From: Candidatus Latescibacterota bacterium
Lineage (GTDB): Bacteria > Latescibacterota > UBA2968 > UBA8231
Direction of reading: 5' to 3'
Assembly (NCBI GenBank): GCA_965215195.1
Contig: CBDCDC010000002.1
Location: 4,032,001 to 4,096,000, forward strand
DNA length: 64,000 bases
Part shown: one piece after another, positions 4,380 through 11,055 of the stretch
Numbering within the stretch: position 1 is the stretch's first letter
Layout: each line of letters begins with the position of its first letter
Notes under the pieces: model-generated
What the model was told of the DNA's origin: nothing
Databases searched by the model: none
Seen by the model: the letters and a program-made list of their open reading frames with translations, nothing else
Translations under genes and position numbers: made by a program

Positions 4380-5021
4380 ATGCCTGTTTATCGCGGACCC
4401 GATGGCAAAGTCATTGAAGAGAAGACCGATAAGCGGAGCGAGGATACCAAACCACCGGGCGTGGCCAACAGGCCGTTGCCGCCGGCACCACAGGACGGCG
4501 AGCAACCCGCCGGTGGTGGGCGTTTAGAGGCACCCACCCAGCGAATGGGCGAAAGTGTCGGCGAGGAGGAGCGGACGCGCTTGGTGGGTGGGTGGCCGCG
4601 GCAAGAAGACAAGGAACGCCGGCAAGAGCGTACCGCAGAGGACCGCGGCATGGACGATCCGGTTGTGGGGTGGTTGGTGGTTGTGGAGGGGCCGGGAAAG
4701 GGGCGGGCCGTGCAATTGGGTTATGGTTCCAATTCGCTTGGACGCGGGGCAACCAACCGCGTCAAACTCGATTTCGGCGACGATCAGATTTCGCGCAATG
4801 GTCATGCGGTTGTCACGTATGATCCGCGGTCGCGGGGCCGAAAGTTTTACGTACAGCACGGCGGCGGCACCAACCTGACGTATCTCGGAGATCAGCCCGT
4901 GCTCGCGCCGGCTGAGTTGCCGGCCCTGAGTCACATCTGTATCGGCCATACGGTTCTCCGGTTCGTGCCCCTGTGCGGTGCTGAGTTTGAATGGCAGGAT
5001 ACAGAAGCAAGCGAGGCGTGA
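4380..5021 (+). CDS. FHA domain protein with disordered N-terminus
   Basis: PVVGWLVVVEGPGKG...LGRG...ISRNGHA...NLTY; RBS ggagg. Confidence 0.85.
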   Translation: MPVYRGPDGKVIEEKTDKRSEDTKPPGVANRPLPPAPQDGEQPAGGGRLEAPTQRMGESVGEEERTRLVGGWPRQEDKERRQERTAEDRGMDDPVVGWLVVVEGPGKGRAVQLGYGSNSLGRGATNRVKLDFGDDQISRNGHAVVTYDPRSRGRKFYVQHGGGTNLTYLGDQPVLAPAELPALSHICIGHTVLRFVPLCGAEFEWQDTEASEA

Positions 5022-6130
5022 TGAACGAATTAGACGGGTGCTTTGCCGCGCGGCAAATTCCCGGCCAACGGGAGTATCAAGAGGATGATTACGGCCTGCT
5101 CGATGGGCGCGACCTCGGCATAGATGGTAGCGAGCACACCATGTTGTTGGTCGCCGATGGCATGGGCGGCCACGTGGGCGGCGCGACGGCTAGTGGCCTG
5201 TTGAGCAAGACCGTTGTCGAGGCGTATCCGCAGGCGTCTGGCCCCATCGTCGATCGGCTGCGGGAGTGTCTCGAAGCGGCCAATGAAGCCATCGCCGCTG
5301 CCATTGCCGAAAATCCCGCACTCGCCAGCATGGGTTCGACCTTGGTTGCGGCGGTTGTTTCGAGCGAAGGGCTGAACTGGATCAGCGTGGGCGACTCGCC
5401 ATTGTGGTTGTTCCGCGAGGGTCAATTGGAGCGGTTGAATGCCGACCACTCGATGGCACCAGTTCTGGCGGATCTGGTGGCCACCGGGCGCATGACCGCA
5501 GAGGAAGCGGCTCAGGATCCAAGTCGGCATTCGCTGCGCTCGGCGGTCATGGGCGATGCCATCCATCTGATTGACGTGTCGTCGCAGCCGGTTGCTGTGC
5601 AGAAGGGCGACCGGGTACTCTTGGCGAGCGATGGTTTGATGACCCTCAGCGATCAAGCGATCGCAGCTATCCTCAAAGAAACGCAAGACGCGCCCTTGGA
5701 GGATAGCGCGGCGGCCCTTATCCAAGCCGTAGAAGCGGCCGAACATCCTCATCAGGACAATACGACCGTTTTGTTGTACGCGCCGGCTGCGGCTGCTCTT
5801 GGCGGGGGGGAAGCTGTTCAGGGTAAGCCGCGATTAAAACGAAAACCTTGGGGCAGACTGTTGGGAATGTTGCTATGCGTTGCTGTCTTATGGGGGGTGC
5901 TTTATTGGCTTAGGCAGGGTGAAGATGTGGCTGTTGAGATGACGCCGGCAACTGTTGAGACGCCAGCGACAACGGATGTTGAACCCATTGAAGGCTCTGA
6001 TGTTCAAGTGCCAATGGCATCCGACGCCGAAGAGGGCGTACCGGCCTCTCAGGAGAAGGCGACAGGGGACAGCGCCCGTGCGGGGGTAGGCAACGAGCCG
6101 CAAGAAGAGCGTGTGGGCGGTGAGCGGTGA
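5021..6130 (+). CDS. PP2C-family Ser/Thr protein phosphatase with C-terminal TM
   Basis: R.YQED, VADGMGGH, VGDS, ASDGL, DNTT motifs; TGATG overlap with the upstream gene. Confidence 0.92.
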   Translation: MNELDGCFAARQIPGQREYQEDDYGLLDGRDLGIDGSEHTMLLVADGMGGHVGGATASGLLSKTVVEAYPQASGPIVDRLRECLEAANEAIAAAIAENPALASMGSTLVAAVVSSEGLNWISVGDSPLWLFREGQLERLNADHSMAPVLADLVATGRMTAEEAAQDPSRHSLRSAVMGDAIHLIDVSSQPVAVQKGDRVLLASDGLMTLSDQAIAAILKETQDAPLEDSAAALIQAVEAAEHPHQDNTTVLLYAPAAAALGGGEAVQGKPRLKRKPWGRLLGMLLCVAVLWGVLYWLRQGEDVAVEMTPATVETPATTDVEPIEGSDVQVPMASDAEEGVPASQEKATGDSARAGVGNEPQEERVGGER

Positions 6131-6262
6131 GCGGTGAGCGTGGATGCAGACACAGATACGGCCCTGAGAGCGTCTGCCTTAGAGTAAAGAGGCGTAAGTG
6201 GGGAACAACATTGCTTGGGAGGGAGAATTTCCCAAGGCCATACTAAACACAGGAGGAGAGGA

Positions 6263-6760
6263 ATGAATTTCTCATATAAGCGGCTTGCCGTAGCCTTGAG
6301 CGTGGTTGTTGCGGTCTTGGTTGGAGGCAAAATGTATGTTGATCATGTTGATCATGTCGAACAGGTGGCGTTGGAGAAGGAGGTACAGGTATTTGCTGCA
6401 AAGGTGGGGCGTTCGCCACGTCCGGATGGGGTGATCACTAGCACTAGGAGATCTCGCATCGAAGAAGCACAGGTGTCCGACCTGCATGTAGCAGCGCACC
6501 TGAACCTACCCGTGCTGACTATGTCCCTAATCAAGGGGGGGGCGGATGTCCATGCCAGAATCAGGCGGTCGGTGGATAACTTTGAAAGAGGGATGACGCC
6601 GCTGCACGCGGCGGTTCGAGAGGATGCTTCTGAGGTAGCGGCGGTGTTGCTTGAGCACGGGGCCGATGTCAACGCCAAAGACAGCTATGGCCATACGCCG
6701 CTACGCTATGCGAGTGTGAGCGTAGCCAAGGTTTTGCGTCGTTACGGTGGCCGAAGGTGA
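6263..6760 (+). CDS. Membrane-anchored ankyrin-repeat protein
   Basis: N-terminal hydrophobic helix; GMTPLHAA, LLEHGADVNAKD, GHTPL; RBS aggagg. Confidence 0.85.
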   Translation: MNFSYKRLAVALSVVVAVLVGGKMYVDHVDHVEQVALEKEVQVFAAKVGRSPRPDGVITSTRRSRIEEAQVSDLHVAAHLNLPVLTMSLIKGGADVHARIRRSVDNFERGMTPLHAAVREDASEVAAVLLEHGADVNAKDSYGHTPLRYASVSVAKVLRRYGGRR

Positions 6761-6793: not shown

Positions 6794-8455
6794 ATGAGCG
6801 AAGAGCAACAACCTCTCAACGCCTTGCCCCAAGGCCATCGGCTGCAAGAATACGAACTGGTGCGCGTGTTGGGCTTTGGCGGCTTTGGCATGACGTATCT
6901 GGGCTTTGACCACCACTTGGACAAAGCCGTCGCGATCAAGGAATACCTGCCATCGGACATTGCCACCCGCACGGCCGACCACAGCGTCGCCCCGCAAACC
7001 AGCGGCTTTGGCGGCGATTTCGAGTGGGGCTTGGAGCGGTTCTTGGACGAAGCGCGCACGTTGGCGCGATTTGACCATCTCCACATCGTTAAAGTCTATC
7101 GTTTCTTTGAAGCGCACGGTACGGCCTATATCGTGATGGAGTATGTCGAAGGGGAGACCTTGTCGGCGTATCTTGAGCGCAAAGGGACGCTGAGCGAAGC
7201 CGAACTCAAAGCGCTTCTATATCCGCTTCTGGACGGTTTGGAGGTGGTGCATAAAGCGGACTTTTTGCATCGGGACATCAAGCCGGGCAACATCGTCCTT
7301 CGAGACGCAGACCATTCGCCGGTGTTGCTGGACTTTGGGGCGGCGCGTCAGGCGATCGGGGCGAAGAGCCGCTCGGTTACGTCTATCGTGACACCGGGGT
7401 ATGCGCCGATTGAGCAGTATTCGAGTCGGGGGCATCAGGGAGCGTGGACGGACCTTTATGCGTTGGGGGGCGTGTGCTATCGGGCGTTGACTGGGGACGT
7501 ACCGGACGATGCGATGGATCGGGTGCGAAATGATCCGTTGGTTCCGGTGGCAAAGCGGTGTGCGGATCGGGCGAGTGGTGCATTTTTGTCAGCGATTGAT
7601 GCGGCATTGGCAGTGGATGAGGGGGATCGTCCGCAGAGTATTGGGGCTTGGCGGGCGGCGATGGAGGCGGATGCGGTCTCGCAGGACGAGCGGCACCCTT
7701 CGTTGGTAAAGCGGTATGCGGTTCGGGTAAGCCAAACGTTTCTTTCGGTGATTGATAAGACATTGACGCAAGGAAGGCAGGGCGCGAGCAGCGAGACCGC
7801 TGATGCGCCGCTAACTACTCAGTCAGCAGCCAAAGTTAAAGAGGCGAAGCGTTTGAACGGGTGGTTTAAGCTCCACTATATTTGCCTTGCTGCCATCATA
7901 CCGGTATTGACGGCACTATTTGTTGGCATTGCGGTGGTATTAGTCTCTTCAGAAGGCGAGCGTGTCCGCAAAGACCTGAGCCGTTTTTTAGAGTCGCAGA
8001 CGCTAGAGCCATATCTGAGTAGCGTATTCGGACTATTTAGCATCATAGTCGCGATTGTTGCGGCCGTATTCGGGTTGATTGCTTTTGTATCCGGGTTGCG
8101 TATCCTACATAAATTGTGGTCCCTCATCTCCGCTCACAAAGCAAAGACGACACCAAGCGAAGCCGTTGGATTTTTCTTTATACCGCTGTTCGGTTTCTAC
8201 TGGAACTTTATTGCAATTTACGGTCTCGCCAAAGCCCTCAATAGCGAAATCGGTCGAAAATCAGTCAGTGAGGCGGCCAGTTTTATCTATTGTTGCTCAT
8301 TTTTGCTTGGCCCTCTATGGGTGATAATGGGATGGCGAGAGGATCAGATTTGGATGCTCCTTATTGGATATATTGTTATGGTTGTGCTCTGGTTCGTCAT
8401 TCTGAGGCAAATGCAGAACGCTGGTATGTTCATTTTGCAATCGGATAAGGTGTAG
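6794..8455 (+). CDS. Hanks-type Ser/Thr kinase with C-terminal multi-TM (DUF4328-like) domain
   Basis: GFGGFG, VAIKE, HRDIKPGN, DFG, YAPIEQ, DLYALG; five hydrophobic helices including FFIPLFGFYW. Confidence 0.92.
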   Translation: MSEEQQPLNALPQGHRLQEYELVRVLGFGGFGMTYLGFDHHLDKAVAIKEYLPSDIATRTADHSVAPQTSGFGGDFEWGLERFLDEARTLARFDHLHIVKVYRFFEAHGTAYIVMEYVEGETLSAYLERKGTLSEAELKALLYPLLDGLEVVHKADFLHRDIKPGNIVLRDADHSPVLLDFGAARQAIGAKSRSVTSIVTPGYAPIEQYSSRGHQGAWTDLYALGGVCYRALTGDVPDDAMDRVRNDPLVPVAKRCADRASGAFLSAIDAALAVDEGDRPQSIGAWRAAMEADAVSQDERHPSLVKRYAVRVSQTFLSVIDKTLTQGRQGASSETADAPLTTQSAAKVKEAKRLNGWFKLHYICLAAIIPVLTALFVGIAVVLVSSEGERVRKDLSRFLESQTLEPYLSSVFGLFSIIVAIVAAVFGLIAFVSGLRILHKLWSLISAHKAKTTPSEAVGFFFIPLFGFYWNFIAIYGLAKALNSEIGRKSVSEAASFIYCCSFLLGPLWVIMGWREDQIWMLLIGYIVMVVLWFVILRQMQNAGMFILQSDKV

Positions 8456-8503: not shown

Positions 8504-9334
8504 ATGAAGTCTTTTGCTGTATGTCTGCTGGGGTTGGTCTCAGTGGGATATGTGCTGGCGACGTATCTGCTGGCGGTGAGTTGCGGCGTGGGGGGTTCGT
8601 CGCAGACCTTTGAGCTTCCGGGGGGTTCGTCGATGGATTTTGTGTGGATTGCGCCGGGGACGTTTATAATGGGTTCGCCGCCTTCGGAGTCGGGTCGTAA
8701 TGATGATGAAGGGCCGATTCATGAGGTGGAGATTAGTAAGGGGTTTTATTTAGGGAAGTATGAGGTTACTCAGGGTCAGTGGAATGCGGTGATGGGGGCG
8801 CGGCCGTGGTCTGGCAAGGACGATGTTCAGTCGAATCCATCTCATCCGGCGGTGTATATTTCTTGGCGCGATGTGCAGGCTTTCATAGAGGAGTTGAATT
8901 TTGCGGCGGGTGAGGTAGTGTATCGTTTGCCGAGTGAGGCGGAGTGGGAGTATGCGTGTCGAGCGGGGAGTACGACTCGTTGGTCGTTTGGGGATGAAGA
9001 GAGGCAACTGACGGATTATGCGTGGTATGATGCTAATGCTTGGGATGTGGGTGAGAAGTATGCTCATGCGGTAGGGCTGAAGCGTCCCAACCCTTGGGGT
9101 TTGTATGATATGCATGGGAATGTTTGGGAGTGGGTGCAGGATTGGTATGACTCGGATTATTATAATAGCTCACCTCGGGTTGACCCCCCGGGGCCTACAT
9201 CCGGCTCTAATCGCGTCGGCCGGGGCGGCGCCTTCAGCAATCTCGCCCAGTACGTGCGGTCGGCGGGTCGCGTCAACGACTCGCCCGACGGCCGCTACTT
9301 CGACGTTGGCGTGCGCCTTTTAAGGATTCGTTAA
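8504..9334 (+). CDS. FGE-sulfatase (SUMF1/C-lectin fold) lipoprotein; putative DGR target
   Basis: GTFIMGS, EVTQGQW, RLPSEAEWEYACRAG, GLYDMHGNVWEW, RV.RGG...RSA.R...G.RL; possible lipobox LAVSC. Confidence 0.9.
   Translation: MKSFAVCLLGLVSVGYVLATYLLAVSCGVGGSSQTFELPGGSSMDFVWIAPGTFIMGSPPSESGRNDDEGPIHEVEISKGFYLGKYEVTQGQWNAVMGARPWSGKDDVQSNPSHPAVYISWRDVQAFIEELNFAAGEVVYRLPSEAEWEYACRAGSTTRWSFGDEERQLTDYAWYDANAWDVGEKYAHAVGLKRPNPWGLYDMHGNVWEWVQDWYDSDYYNSSPRVDPPGPTSGSNRVGRGGAFSNLAQYVRSAGRVNDSPDGRYFDVGVRLLRIR
9200..9334 (+). other. Putative DGR variable region (VR) and IMH
   Basis: C-terminal CLec segment. 26 of 40 codons at 9200-9319 end in C and none in A; the variable slots are all NNY codons. No TR found in the window. 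Confidence 0.7.
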
Positions 9335-9401
9335 CCCTTTAGCTCTTTTACCCTTTTACCCTTGGTGGGGTGTCAAGGGGTGTGGGGTGTCTTTTGGGGG
9401 A

Positions 9402-9466
9402 GCCTTTTAGGAGCCACCCCGATAAAGGGGCGTGCGGAGCCGCCCTTCGGGTGGCTCCTAAAAGGC
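9402..9466. repeat. Perfect 18-bp inverted repeat (hairpin/cruciform)
   Basis: gccttttaggagccaccc (9402-9419) pairs with gggtggctcctaaaaggc (9449-9466). Confidence 0.9.
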
Positions 9467-9497
9467 GAGGGGGAGGGGGCGTTTTTTTTCTGGTATG

Positions 9498-9519
9498 TCC
9501 GGCCTGCGTGCAGGCCGGA
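9498..9519. repeat. Perfect 10-bp-stem GC hairpin
   Basis: tccggcctgc-gt-gcaggccgga. Confidence 0.9.
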
Positions 9520-9564
9520 GCGAAATTTTTCAAATTCATTATTATGTTTACTTAGGAGGCCCTA

Positions 9565-9740
9565 TTGCTCCGCATTTTCACCCTCAAGTTCCAAAGCCCC
9601 CTAGGGGCCTTTGACGACGCCGAACTCCAAGCGTTCATCAAAGACAAAGAGGTGTTGTCCATTCGCGATCACTTCTTCACCAAGGACGAGATGCCCTATC
9701 TGGTGGTGCTGGTGACTTATCAACTCGCCGGCCCCCGATT
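9565..9740 (+). pseudogene. N-terminal fragment of an HRDC-domain DGR accessory-like protein
   Basis: RBS aggagg; LRIFTLKF...FDDAELQAFIKDKEVLSIRDHFF...PYLVVLVTY resembles (from recall) the N-terminus of DGR-linked HRDC proteins. The ORF then runs into unrelated AT-rich DNA. Confidence 0.55.
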
Positions 9741-9802: not shown

Positions 9803-10231
9803 TTAATCCTTATCTTTCCACTCCACTTTCACTATCCACTCGCCATAATCATTTTGATAAAGTCTAGCTTTACCAACTTTATCAAACTCCTCTCCATCAA
9901 ATGCTAGACGCGCTAGAAATCGAGACGAAAAAGCGCGTTCTGGGTCTAAGTAGAAGCTTCCGCGAACCCGGACTTGTACTGGCCAATATTTTCTTTCTTC
10001 ATTGTAAGAACCCCATTTCTCTATGCTTACTTCTTCCATATCCCACCGTAGGAGGTCAGGATCTTTATCAAGTAGCCTACTATGACCAGAAGTGAATCCA
10101 TTTTTTTCTATCGCCGCTTTTACCAGAACCTTTATTTCTGACTCACTCGGCTTTGGGGCGAAACATCCAACCAACAACGTTGGCGATATAAAGGCCAATA
10201 GTAAAACAGGAAATTGAACAAGTGATTTCAT
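9803..10231 (-). CDS. Hypothetical lipoprotein
   Basis: RBS ggagg before ATG 10231; lipobox LVGC; AT-rich. Confidence 0.7.
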   Translation of the reverse strand: MKSLVQFPVLLLAFISPTLLVGCFAPKPSESEIKVLVKAAIEKNGFTSGHSRLLDKDPDLLRWDMEEVSIEKWGSYNEERKYWPVQVRVRGSFYLDPERAFSSRFLARLAFDGEEFDKVGKARLYQNDYGEWIVKVEWKDKD

Positions 10232-10374
10232 AGGTTGGCCTCCCGATCTATGACGGATTACAGAGTTGACGAGTTTACCTAGCCTAAGGCCAAAGGTACT
10301 CAAGTCCTTTTCGGAAGCCAAAGATTTTTTACAAGCCCTCTTAGGCAAAAATGGAAAAACGGGCCGGTATTCCA

Positions 10375-10736
10375 TTAAGGAGATTTCCGAGAAGCTGCGA
10401 AGGCACTGAACGAGGAAATCTTCAGTGCCCTAGACGCCCTACGTAGCGCCCTAGTCTGGTCGGCCGCCTCGGTTTGAGATAGTCGCCTTCCCAAGGTGTT
10501 CGCGGCCACCGTCGCGGGTACCCGGCCCGTCAGTGCGGTAAAGGTGCCGATTTGGCTGCCAATAATCCAGCGCGTCAAGACGTTCATACGTTCATTGAGC
10601 GCGTCTAGTCGGCGGTTTATCTCGGCGTTGTTCTGCTGCATTTCTTGGCGCAAGGCGGCGTTATCCTCGATGCAGTTTAATCGCTTGGATAACTCCATTT
10701 GCACGGGATCGAGCTTGACTTCGGGGGCTACTGCAA
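10375..10736 (-). pseudogene. Degenerate copy of the adjacent coiled-coil/TM protein
   Basis: Compared with the 11055 gene: TTG CAG TAG nonsense, a 1-bp deletion in the C run, and a scrambled 3' end. Confidence 0.6.
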
Positions 10737-10779
10737 GGTCAGTCTCTCCTTGGGGTGATGCCCGGCCAAGGCGCGAGGG

Positions 10780-11055
10780 TTAGGTCAATTTGAGGGCGGC
10801 GAACAAGAGACCCGTCAGGGCAATTTGGGTGCCAATGACCCAATAGATGCGTCCATTGAGCGCATCTAGTCGGCGGTGTACCTCGGCGATGTCTTGCCGC
10901 ATGTCCTGCCGCAAGGCGGCGTTGTCCTGCCGCAAGGCGGCTATGTCCTCGCGTTGGTGTGTCTCGATGCGGTCGAGGCGTCGCTCAATGCTGTCTAATC
11001 GCTTGGACAACTCCACTTGCACGGGATCGGGTGTGACTTCGGGGGGCTGCTGCAT
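10780..11055 (-). CDS. Small coiled-coil protein with C-terminal TM (DUF1640/XhlA-like)
   Basis: ALRQD heptad repeats; C-terminal IYWVIGTQIALTGLLFAAL; RBS aggag. Confidence 0.75.
   Translation of the reverse strand: MQQPPEVTPDPVQVELSKRLDSIERRLDRIETHQREDIAALRQDNAALRQDMRQDIAEVHRRLDALNGRIYWVIGTQIALTGLLFAALKLT

Follow-up and report, generated by a model that had tools for sequence, protein, structure and literature searches.

The stretch of DNA analysed here (hereafter the window, 64 kb) comprises positions 4032001-4096000 of contig C2 in the assembly under study (G000), whose contigs are designated C1 and C2. The gene at 8504-9334 of the window ends in a variable region (VR) of a diversity-generating retroelement (DGR). 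The assembly contains neither the template repeat (TR) nor the reverse transcriptase (RT) of such an element, a stump of a DGR accessory gene lies directly downstream of the VR, and relics of the element are present in related genomes. We consider it probable (roughly 0.78) that a cis DGR was recently inactivated at this locus and that its VR is now frozen. The features on which this reading turns are as follows (IMH, initiation of mutagenic homing).

8504 to 9334, plus strand: target gene (276 aa), with a hydrophobic N-terminus, an FGE-sulfatase (C-type-lectin-fold) domain, and the VR at the C-terminus
9201 to 9307, plus strand: VR proper, the stretch homologous to the TRs of relatives, from alignment to the TR of genome G064 and the TR fragment of genome G021
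9308 to 9342, plus strand: IMH-like constant block with the GC-rich start GGCGTGCGCC, running through the stop codon (9332-9334) into non-coding DNA
9565 to 9735, plus strand: DGR accessory-gene stump, N-terminal ca. 57 codons with the HRDC domain missing, from homology to genome G018 and the public assemblies P0003 and P0007
9736 to 10400, no strand assigned: replacement segment at the expected place of HRDC, RT, and TR, of low GC content (0.41-0.43) and with no homology to the G018 locus

Codon composition of the variable region and fold of its protein

The codons that a first, sequence-only reading had quoted as a putative VR were located at 9206-9316, in frame with the plus-strand open reading frame (ORF) 8504-9334. 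The third positions of these 37 codons are C 24, T 5, G 8, and A 0, while those of the 45 codons of 9200-9334 are C 26, T 8, G 9, and A 2. The strong bias toward C-ending codons noticed in that reading was thus real, but its count of 26 of 40 in C and none in A had mixed two ranges. In the remaining 234 codons of the gene (8504-9205), the third positions are G 117, T 86, A 15, and C 16 (Fisher p = 7e-15 for C-ending codons compared with the block). Codon usage therefore changes sharply where the block begins, from a C-ending share of 16/234 outside to 24/37 inside. The varying codons lie within 9206-9307.

The fold of the target protein was assigned from Pfam and PDB matches. It matched PF03781 (E 4.9e-51, residues 45-274), and its best solved-structure match was variable protein 1 of Treponema denticola (TvpA; 2y3c, E 4.2e-32). 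Together with the adenine pattern shown below, these matches confirm the earlier claim of a DGR VR in an FGE-type C-type-lectin fold. The block contains zero cysteines, from which we presume that the catalytic Cys pair of FGE is absent. The target ORF is open to 9334, and no stop codon has been introduced by the variation.

Template repeats in related genomes

A complete homologous DGR was found in a genome of the same family but a different genus (G064), in line with the expectation that a TR and an RT should occur in related genomes. It consists of an RT, a TR, and an FGE-sulfatase target with its own VR. The RT (303 aa, RVT_1) has the motifs IGNLTSQ and YMDD and matches phrog_1423 (E 2.5e-100); an IGNLTSQ-type motif marks DGR RTs. 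The TR, ca. 113 nt in length, begins right after the RT stop codon. In a genome of the same genus as G000 (G021), only a 53-nt TR fragment was found, which reads GCGTC AAT CGGGGCGGC AAC TTC AAC AAT AAC GCC CAG AAC GTG… and has A where the G000 copies vary. On its 5' side, ca. 20 nt resemble the 3' end of the G064 DGR RT gene. The TR that the sequence-only reading had reconstructed from the VR matches these real TRs at 95 of 105 bases (G064) and at 51 of 53 bases (G021 fragment), as compared by eye.

Alignment of the G064 TR with the window VR gave mismatches at 16 of the 27 TR adenines (A-sites) and at 8 of the 86 other sites (p 3e-7). When all five G000 VRs described below were compared with this TR, 16-22 of 27 A-sites and 7-17 of 86 others were mismatched (p 2e-5 to 4e-10). 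The window VR differs from the G021 fragment at 9 of 14 A-sites and 1 of 39 others, and the corresponding ranges for the five VRs are 8-11 of 14 and 1-4 of 39.

A second TR of the G064 type was found on metagenome contig L062 (1.4 kb) by scanning metagenome_contigs with a 21-mer. Another contig considered as a carrier of this TR family, L063, has an unrelated DGR and a chance match to the 21-mer. The scan of genome_contigs with the 30-mer of the TR core returned G021 itself only. Matches in relatives that start at the VR (L006, L022, and L009) were also examined as TRs and rejected; they are VRs in other gene contexts.

The G021 TR fragment is located within a type III CRISPR-Cas neighbourhood (L048, 1250-12030). 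The order there is a CRISPR array of >50 units (37-nt repeat), a group-II-like RT-maturase-HNH gene, the TR fragment, and genes for an AAA-ATPase, a Card1-like protein, a Cas10-palm protein, and a RAMP protein.

Paralogous copies of the block in G000

Low-stringency BLAST and an nhmmer profile, which also matched more distant FGE paralogues, revealed at least five copies of the block in G000, namely that of the window and those at C2:2889516 (+), C2:4023375 (+), C2:1766908 (-), and C1:551868 (+). The last sits in a truncated gene. Inside the 64-kb window, no further copy of the block was found by repeat search. The five copies have a common scaffold and a constant 3' block running past the stop codon into non-coding DNA, and they differ almost only at first and second codon positions.

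The window block and that at C2:2889516 have 20 differences, 9 at position 1, 11 at position 2, and 0 at position 3. They differ at 19 of 32 TR-A sites and at 1 of 77 other sites, which agrees with the earlier prediction that mismatches to paralogues would be restricted to TR adenines. In the 48 nt before the block, 0 of 48 positions differ between these two genes, compared with 103 of 538 (19%) in the gene bodies. Across the paralogues, divergence is 0-10% in the pre-block 48 nt and 18-24% in the gene bodies. When all five copies are taken together, position 3 varies at 12 of 37 sites, largely owing to the diverged copies at C2:1766908 and C1:551868.

Absence of a template repeat and a DGR reverse transcriptase from the assembly

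The G000 assembly is 6.13 Mb in 2 contigs, has no N, and is 95.2% complete. We searched it for a TR by nhmmer --max with a profile of four VRs, by word-size-7 blastn, and by blastn with the G064 and L062 TRs, and none was found; no copy of the block in G000 is adenine-rich. The short-word BLASTN search for a copy differing only at adenines beside an RT gene, which had been proposed with the sequence-only reading, returned VR-type copies and distant FGE paralogues only. No DGR RT was found in G000 by RVT_1 search or by tblastn with the G064 DGR RT. The proposal that the TR lies elsewhere and acts in trans was therefore not borne out in the assembly. A 109-nt match between the spacer behind the G064 TR and C2:503336 was considered as a DGR relic, and turned out to be an unrelated membrane-protein coding region.

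G000 has two RVT_1 matches. The first (C2:200788), a group-II-like RT of 599 aa, contains RVT_1, intron maturase, and HNH and is the sole tblastn match to the G064 RT (27% identity). The second (C2:298818) is a retron type I-C RT-Toprim of 568 aa (PADLOC E 2.5e-224; L002, C2:297318-300941). Rfam searches of the RT loci of G021 and G000 detected no group II intron RNA and gave weak CRISPR-repeat matches only. At the G000 locus (L001, C2:199288-203016), another gene begins ca. 55 nt after the stop codon of the group-II-like RT, which is orthologous to that of G021. This RT may be a CRISPR-associated rather than an intron protein.

The search was extended to 31 genomes of the genus, many of them single-contig, and to 76 genomes of the family; these genomes are samples, many are incomplete, and the counts mean not found in those searched. 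An intact DGR RT was found in 0 of the 31. The TR core 30-mer, within 3 mismatches, occurs in 1 of the 31 (G021), as the truncated copy. RT matches in the genus belong to group-II-like or other classes and were rejected as DGR RTs, including a 335-aa frame in G001 that is a truncated group-II-like RT. A G064-type RT at E <= 1e-20 was detected in 1 of the 76 family genomes, G064 itself, and RTs of 33-36% identity in two more. No match to the TR core, the TR 3' half, or the IMH block was obtained in viral_contigs (0 matches).

Accessory-gene stump and probable deletion of the core

The accessory-gene stump begins ca. 230 nt downstream of the VR. As a component of a DGR cassette, the accessory gene is present in G000 only as these N-terminal ca. 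57 codons, and the called ORF runs to 9867 through unrelated sequence. Positions 9353-9701 of the window are 79% identical to the DNA 3' of the second VR (VR2) of G018, and homology to the G018 locus ends at 9701. The first 46-47 aa of the stump are 91-94% identical to the G018 gene. In G018, the same small ORF continues into HRDC with a stop codon and a frameshift, forming a pseudogene, after which lies an RT fragment of 30-32 aa that is 75-80% identical to the G064 RT.

Intact homologues of the accessory gene occur in public assemblies (P0003, 167 aa; P0007, 166 aa), where an N-terminal domain, a linker, and HRDC (PF00570) follow one another. They are encoded on contigs of 32 kb and 143 kb, respectively. 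Both are 93-96% identical to the window over 57 aa, and the window frame departs from them after '…VTYQLAGP', at residue ca. 57 (ca. 9736). The N-terminal domain of ca. 57 aa has no Pfam family. In a genome of another genus (G074), the order is target, hairpins, N-terminal domain, and HRDC (E 6e-20). HRDC in G000 is confined to open frames of 658 aa and 374 aa, far from any VR. The stump beside the VR indicates that the locus was once the cis target of a DGR whose core is now gone, and the earlier description of an orphan or remote target has to be replaced by that of a former cis target.

The replacement segment carries a 190-aa ORF (9803-10375, minus strand) with no Pfam family. Next to it, at 10375-11055 on the minus strand, are two tandem small coiled-coil proteins with C-terminal membrane helices, encoded by DNA repeats (D10/D13, 84-87%). 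A similar repetitive gene is found 3' of the DGR relic in G018. The accessory homologues in the public assemblies P0002, P0004, and P0005 are truncated or frameshifted inside HRDC, and decay of the accessory cassette seems to be common in related organisms.

Constant 3' block and hairpins

The constant block is kept in the G000 paralogues and in the VR loci of G018, G021, G022, G009, G003, and G006, including the bases after the stop codon. The G064 TR diverges from the VRs within this block, as expected of IMH versus IMH*. From these alignments, the block is probably the IMH. It is followed by three predicted DNA hairpins.

9359 to 9379, plus strand: small hairpin with the stem CCCTTG/CAAGGG and a G-rich loop, from DNA folding; present in several VR loci
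9402 to 9466, plus strand: long hairpin of 65 nt, its apical part (…GGAGCCGCCC…) conserved and its basal stem variable between loci but still complementary, from folding
9498 to 9519, plus strand: GC-rich hairpin followed by a T-run, terminator-like, from folding; covarying copies in the locus at C2:2889516, G018, and G003

The fold of 9335-9535 has a predicted energy of -47.7 kcal/mol (z = -5.2), and 0 of 200 shuffles were as stable. In the long hairpin, changes on both sides with pairing kept were observed in 6 of 28 pairs among four aligned loci. G074 has the same hairpin layout, and in G064, which is without the accessory gene, the hairpins are not obviously present. DGRs have an IMH, followed by a GC-rich inverted repeat in about a third of cases according to PMC5758913. 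The hairpins, the long one included, may be either such target-recognition inverted repeats or terminators.

Timing of the loss and current variation

Comparing orthologous VRs, the window differs from VR2 of G018 at 25 of 32 TR-A sites and at 3 of 77 others (p 3e-15). These differences at A-sites indicate that mutagenic homing continued after the two species split. Three genomes carry dissimilar lesions (the stump in G000, in G018 the pseudogene with its RT fragment, and in G021 the truncated TR), which represent separate events. Non-A change between the window and its closest copy is near zero (1/77 in the block and 0/48 before it), which suggests that the last homing was recent. Loss of the core was thus probably recent and lineage-specific.

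A second FGE family (C1:900737-905338, block at C1:903889; L010-L013, L015, L016, L023, L024, and L032) also has a VR-like block. It is near-identical across at least seven species of the genus and is an anciently frozen VR.

Each of five sequencing runs, which come from two studies, contained 73-83% of the words sampled from 8504-9600. Three of them (X1, X3, and X5) were mapped, together with a raw-read Hi-C run (X6). X1 and X3 each yielded a 148-nt contig over 9188-9335 with 0 differences at flank-level depth, and each a second 148-nt contig with 20 differences, a number equal to that between the C2:2889516 copy and the window. X5 yielded a 0-difference contig over 9228-9407. The VR is covered by assembled contigs only, the depth of the raw Hi-C reads of X6 on the VR being zero. 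Contigs from three runs, which belong to two studies, agree fully on the VR sequence, and this speaks weakly for stasis. Behind 9230, two contigs of X3 run into an adenine-rich variant (agreement 0.82) that is without the scaffold TTC codon and could be a VR or TR of another organism in the sample.

Proposed history of the locus

In the history that we favour, the block 9201-9342 is the VR together with the probable IMH, and it would encode the ligand-binding face of a C-type-lectin/FGE-fold domain working with a Ser/Thr kinase. The locus would formerly have been arranged in the order target, hairpins, accessory gene (N-terminal domain and HRDC), RT, and TR. By mutagenic retrohoming, TR RNA would have been reverse-transcribed with random bases placed opposite adenines, and the terminal part of the gene, as far as the IMH, would have been overwritten by the cDNA. 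The core would then have been deleted here after codon ca. 57 of the accessory gene. Without RT and TR, the VR and its four sister copies would be frozen in their last diversified state, and sister species would have lost their cores through different lesions.

Several points weigh against a frozen VR, or against the strength of the tests on which it rests. The VR scaffold is undecayed and the IMH-like block and hairpins are intact, which would fit a target that is still served equally well. The adenine tests use the TR of another genus and a truncated fragment in place of the cognate TR, and the G064 TR-VR pair itself has 8 of 86 non-A mismatches. The 48-nt identity before the VR spans many unchanged adenines, and recombination between paralogues may add to the conservation of this flank. 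As for the sequencing runs, assembled contigs do not retain rare variants, and the assembly may itself have been built from these runs. A plasmid or phage carrying RT and TR could also have been left out of an assembly of 95.2% completeness.

Alternative explanations

Of the alternatives, the one that survives best is that the VR is still diversified in trans, by an RT and a TR on a plasmid, a phage, or unassembled DNA. Besides the intact scaffold, IMH-like block, and hairpins and the incomplete assembly, it is favoured by the essential identity of non-A sites between copies. Non-phage DGRs with remote targets >100 kb away from their RT are known (PMC5758913), and the accessory homologues of 93-96% identity that remain intact in public metagenome assemblies suggest that living relatives of the element probably exist. 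Nevertheless, neither TR nor DGR RT was found in the 6.13 Mb, an intact RT occurs in none of the 31 genus genomes searched, viral_contigs gave no matches, and the sole metagenome TR of the family is of the G064 type. The cis core at the same locus is visibly deleted, and the VR is unchanged in the contigs of the three runs. We thus regard diversification in trans as unlikely.

A resident RT, either the group-II-like RT at C2:200788 or the retron RT at C2:298818, might have taken over synthesis of the VR cDNA, and in G021 the TR fragment does lie ca. 25 nt after the stop codon of the orthologous group-II-like RT gene. However, there is no TR anywhere in G000, including behind its own copy of this RT gene, and both RTs belong to other well-defined classes. 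The adjacency in G021 looks like a rearrangement scar, given the similarity of the ca. 20 nt on the 5' side of the fragment to the end of the G064 DGR RT gene. Such a takeover is very improbable.

An ordinary hypervariable paralogue surface, shaped by positive selection and gene conversion with no retroelement, could in principle give concentrated non-synonymous change in a paralogous family and identical flanks, but it is effectively refuted because the variation falls on adenines of the real TRs of G064 and G021 (p down to 3e-15), with 0 of 20 differences at third positions, an abrupt change of codon usage at the block, and accessory and RT relics beside an orthologous VR.

The inactivated cis DGR with a frozen VR remains the reading that we prefer. 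It might be extended by a 'hit-and-run' model, which we put forward as a doubtful but not negligible idea, in which the VR-bearing kinase-sensor genes of the genus serve as standing landing pads and a DGR core comes and goes repeatedly. A core would arrive horizontally, rewrite all IMH-bearing paralogues in trans, and then be deleted differently in each lineage, while selection would keep the IMH and hairpin module for re-diversification by the next core. If true, this model would explain the RT count of 0/31 genomes, the interspecies differences at A-sites, and the near-undecayed scaffolds.

Target protein and its signalling neighbourhood

Directly upstream of the target gene is a kinase gene.

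6794 to 8455, plus strand: Ser/Thr protein kinase with a C-terminal membrane region (Pkinase E 3.9e-37)

In the window, the kinase and the VR target are separate genes, whereas at C2:2889516 and C2:4023375 a homologous kinase is fused to the VR-bearing FGE. These two paralogues (755 and 723 aa) have the order kinase, transmembrane segment, repeats, FGE, and VR. One further paralogue is a multi-repeat protein of 1569 aa with the FGE-VR module at its end. Upstream of the window kinase are genes for a PP2C-type phosphatase (4991-6130) and an ankyrin-repeat protein (6215-6760), an arrangement suggesting that the phosphatase, the ankyrin protein, the kinase, and the VR protein form a signalling module.

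The target gene has an unusual third-position composition before the block (8504-9205; G.50, T.37, C.07, A.06), its G+T share being.87. The genome baseline of this share over 2846 long open frames has a mean of.467, a standard deviation of.067, and a 99.9th percentile of.676. An extreme G/T-ending bias was also observed at C2:2887392-2889689, C2:4021365-4023548, and C1:900748-904068, and the G064 target (L050:7574-8409) has a value of.78. At all five loci, the final 1-2 kb ahead of the stop codon have a GC skew of +0.2 to +0.4, which falls to ca. 0 beyond it, although the paralogues are not independent. The gradient of GC skew toward the VR was considered as a VR signal and rejected as a property of the FGE module shared by all paralogues.

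Significance and comparison with known systems

The flagged block is probably a relic of a known kind of system. For known DGRs, PMC5758913 describes targets that are remote or multiple, HRDC accessory genes (in 14 of 372 DGRs), a kinase-domain target, and WD40 + FGE-sulfatase targets. The present locus documents what remains of a dead DGR: sensor domains that were diversified and are now fixed, on proteins linked to Ser/Thr kinases, together with an intact target-recognition end and an accessory stump. It also extends kinase-C-type-lectin DGR targets and HRDC-type cassettes to a Latescibacterota-type lineage. As regards annotation, the case shows that a VR-like block can be identified and read correctly even when its own genome contains no TR.

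The three genomes with three lesions, together with the complete cassette in a distant genus, form a comparative series that could be used to date DGR loss. It might also help to establish whether a core tends to be lost after a useful variant has become fixed. For cyanobacteria, PMC7517822 describes both a degraded cassette and a paralogue in which remnants of TR-VR homology persist with no RT close by, and suggests that selection of a variant is followed by removal of the diversifying parts.

The DGR of Treponema denticola, with TvpA, resembles the present system in the FGE-type C-type-lectin fold, the C-terminal VR, and the HRDC-type accessory gene. It likewise has several VR-bearing targets per genome, some of them far from the core, as stated in PMC5758913. 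In contrast, the RT and TR are gone here, HRDC is deleted, the targets are linked to Ser/Thr kinases, the accessory protein has an extra N-terminal domain of ca. 57 aa, and the host is Latescibacterota-type.

Cyanobacterial DGRs, as described in PMC7517822, share with the present system targets that combine a kinase with a C-terminal C-type-lectin domain, and many paralogues inside and outside DGR loci. They differ in phylum. Here, 31 sampled genomes of the genus are without an intact RT, orthologous VRs differ at A-sites, and the lesions in G000, G018, and G021 are visibly independent.

The DGR of Bordetella phage BPP-1 also has a C-terminal VR in a C-type-lectin-fold protein, with adenine-specific variation at positions 1 and 2 of AAY codons. 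At the end of its VR, a constant IMH opens with GC-rich sequence, and an inverted repeat comes next (PMC5758913). Compared with BPP-1, the system described here is chromosomal, has an HRDC-type accessory gene instead of Avd and several targets, and is missing its core; its putative inverted repeat is far longer (ca. 65 nt) and lies ca. 65 nt after the stop codon.

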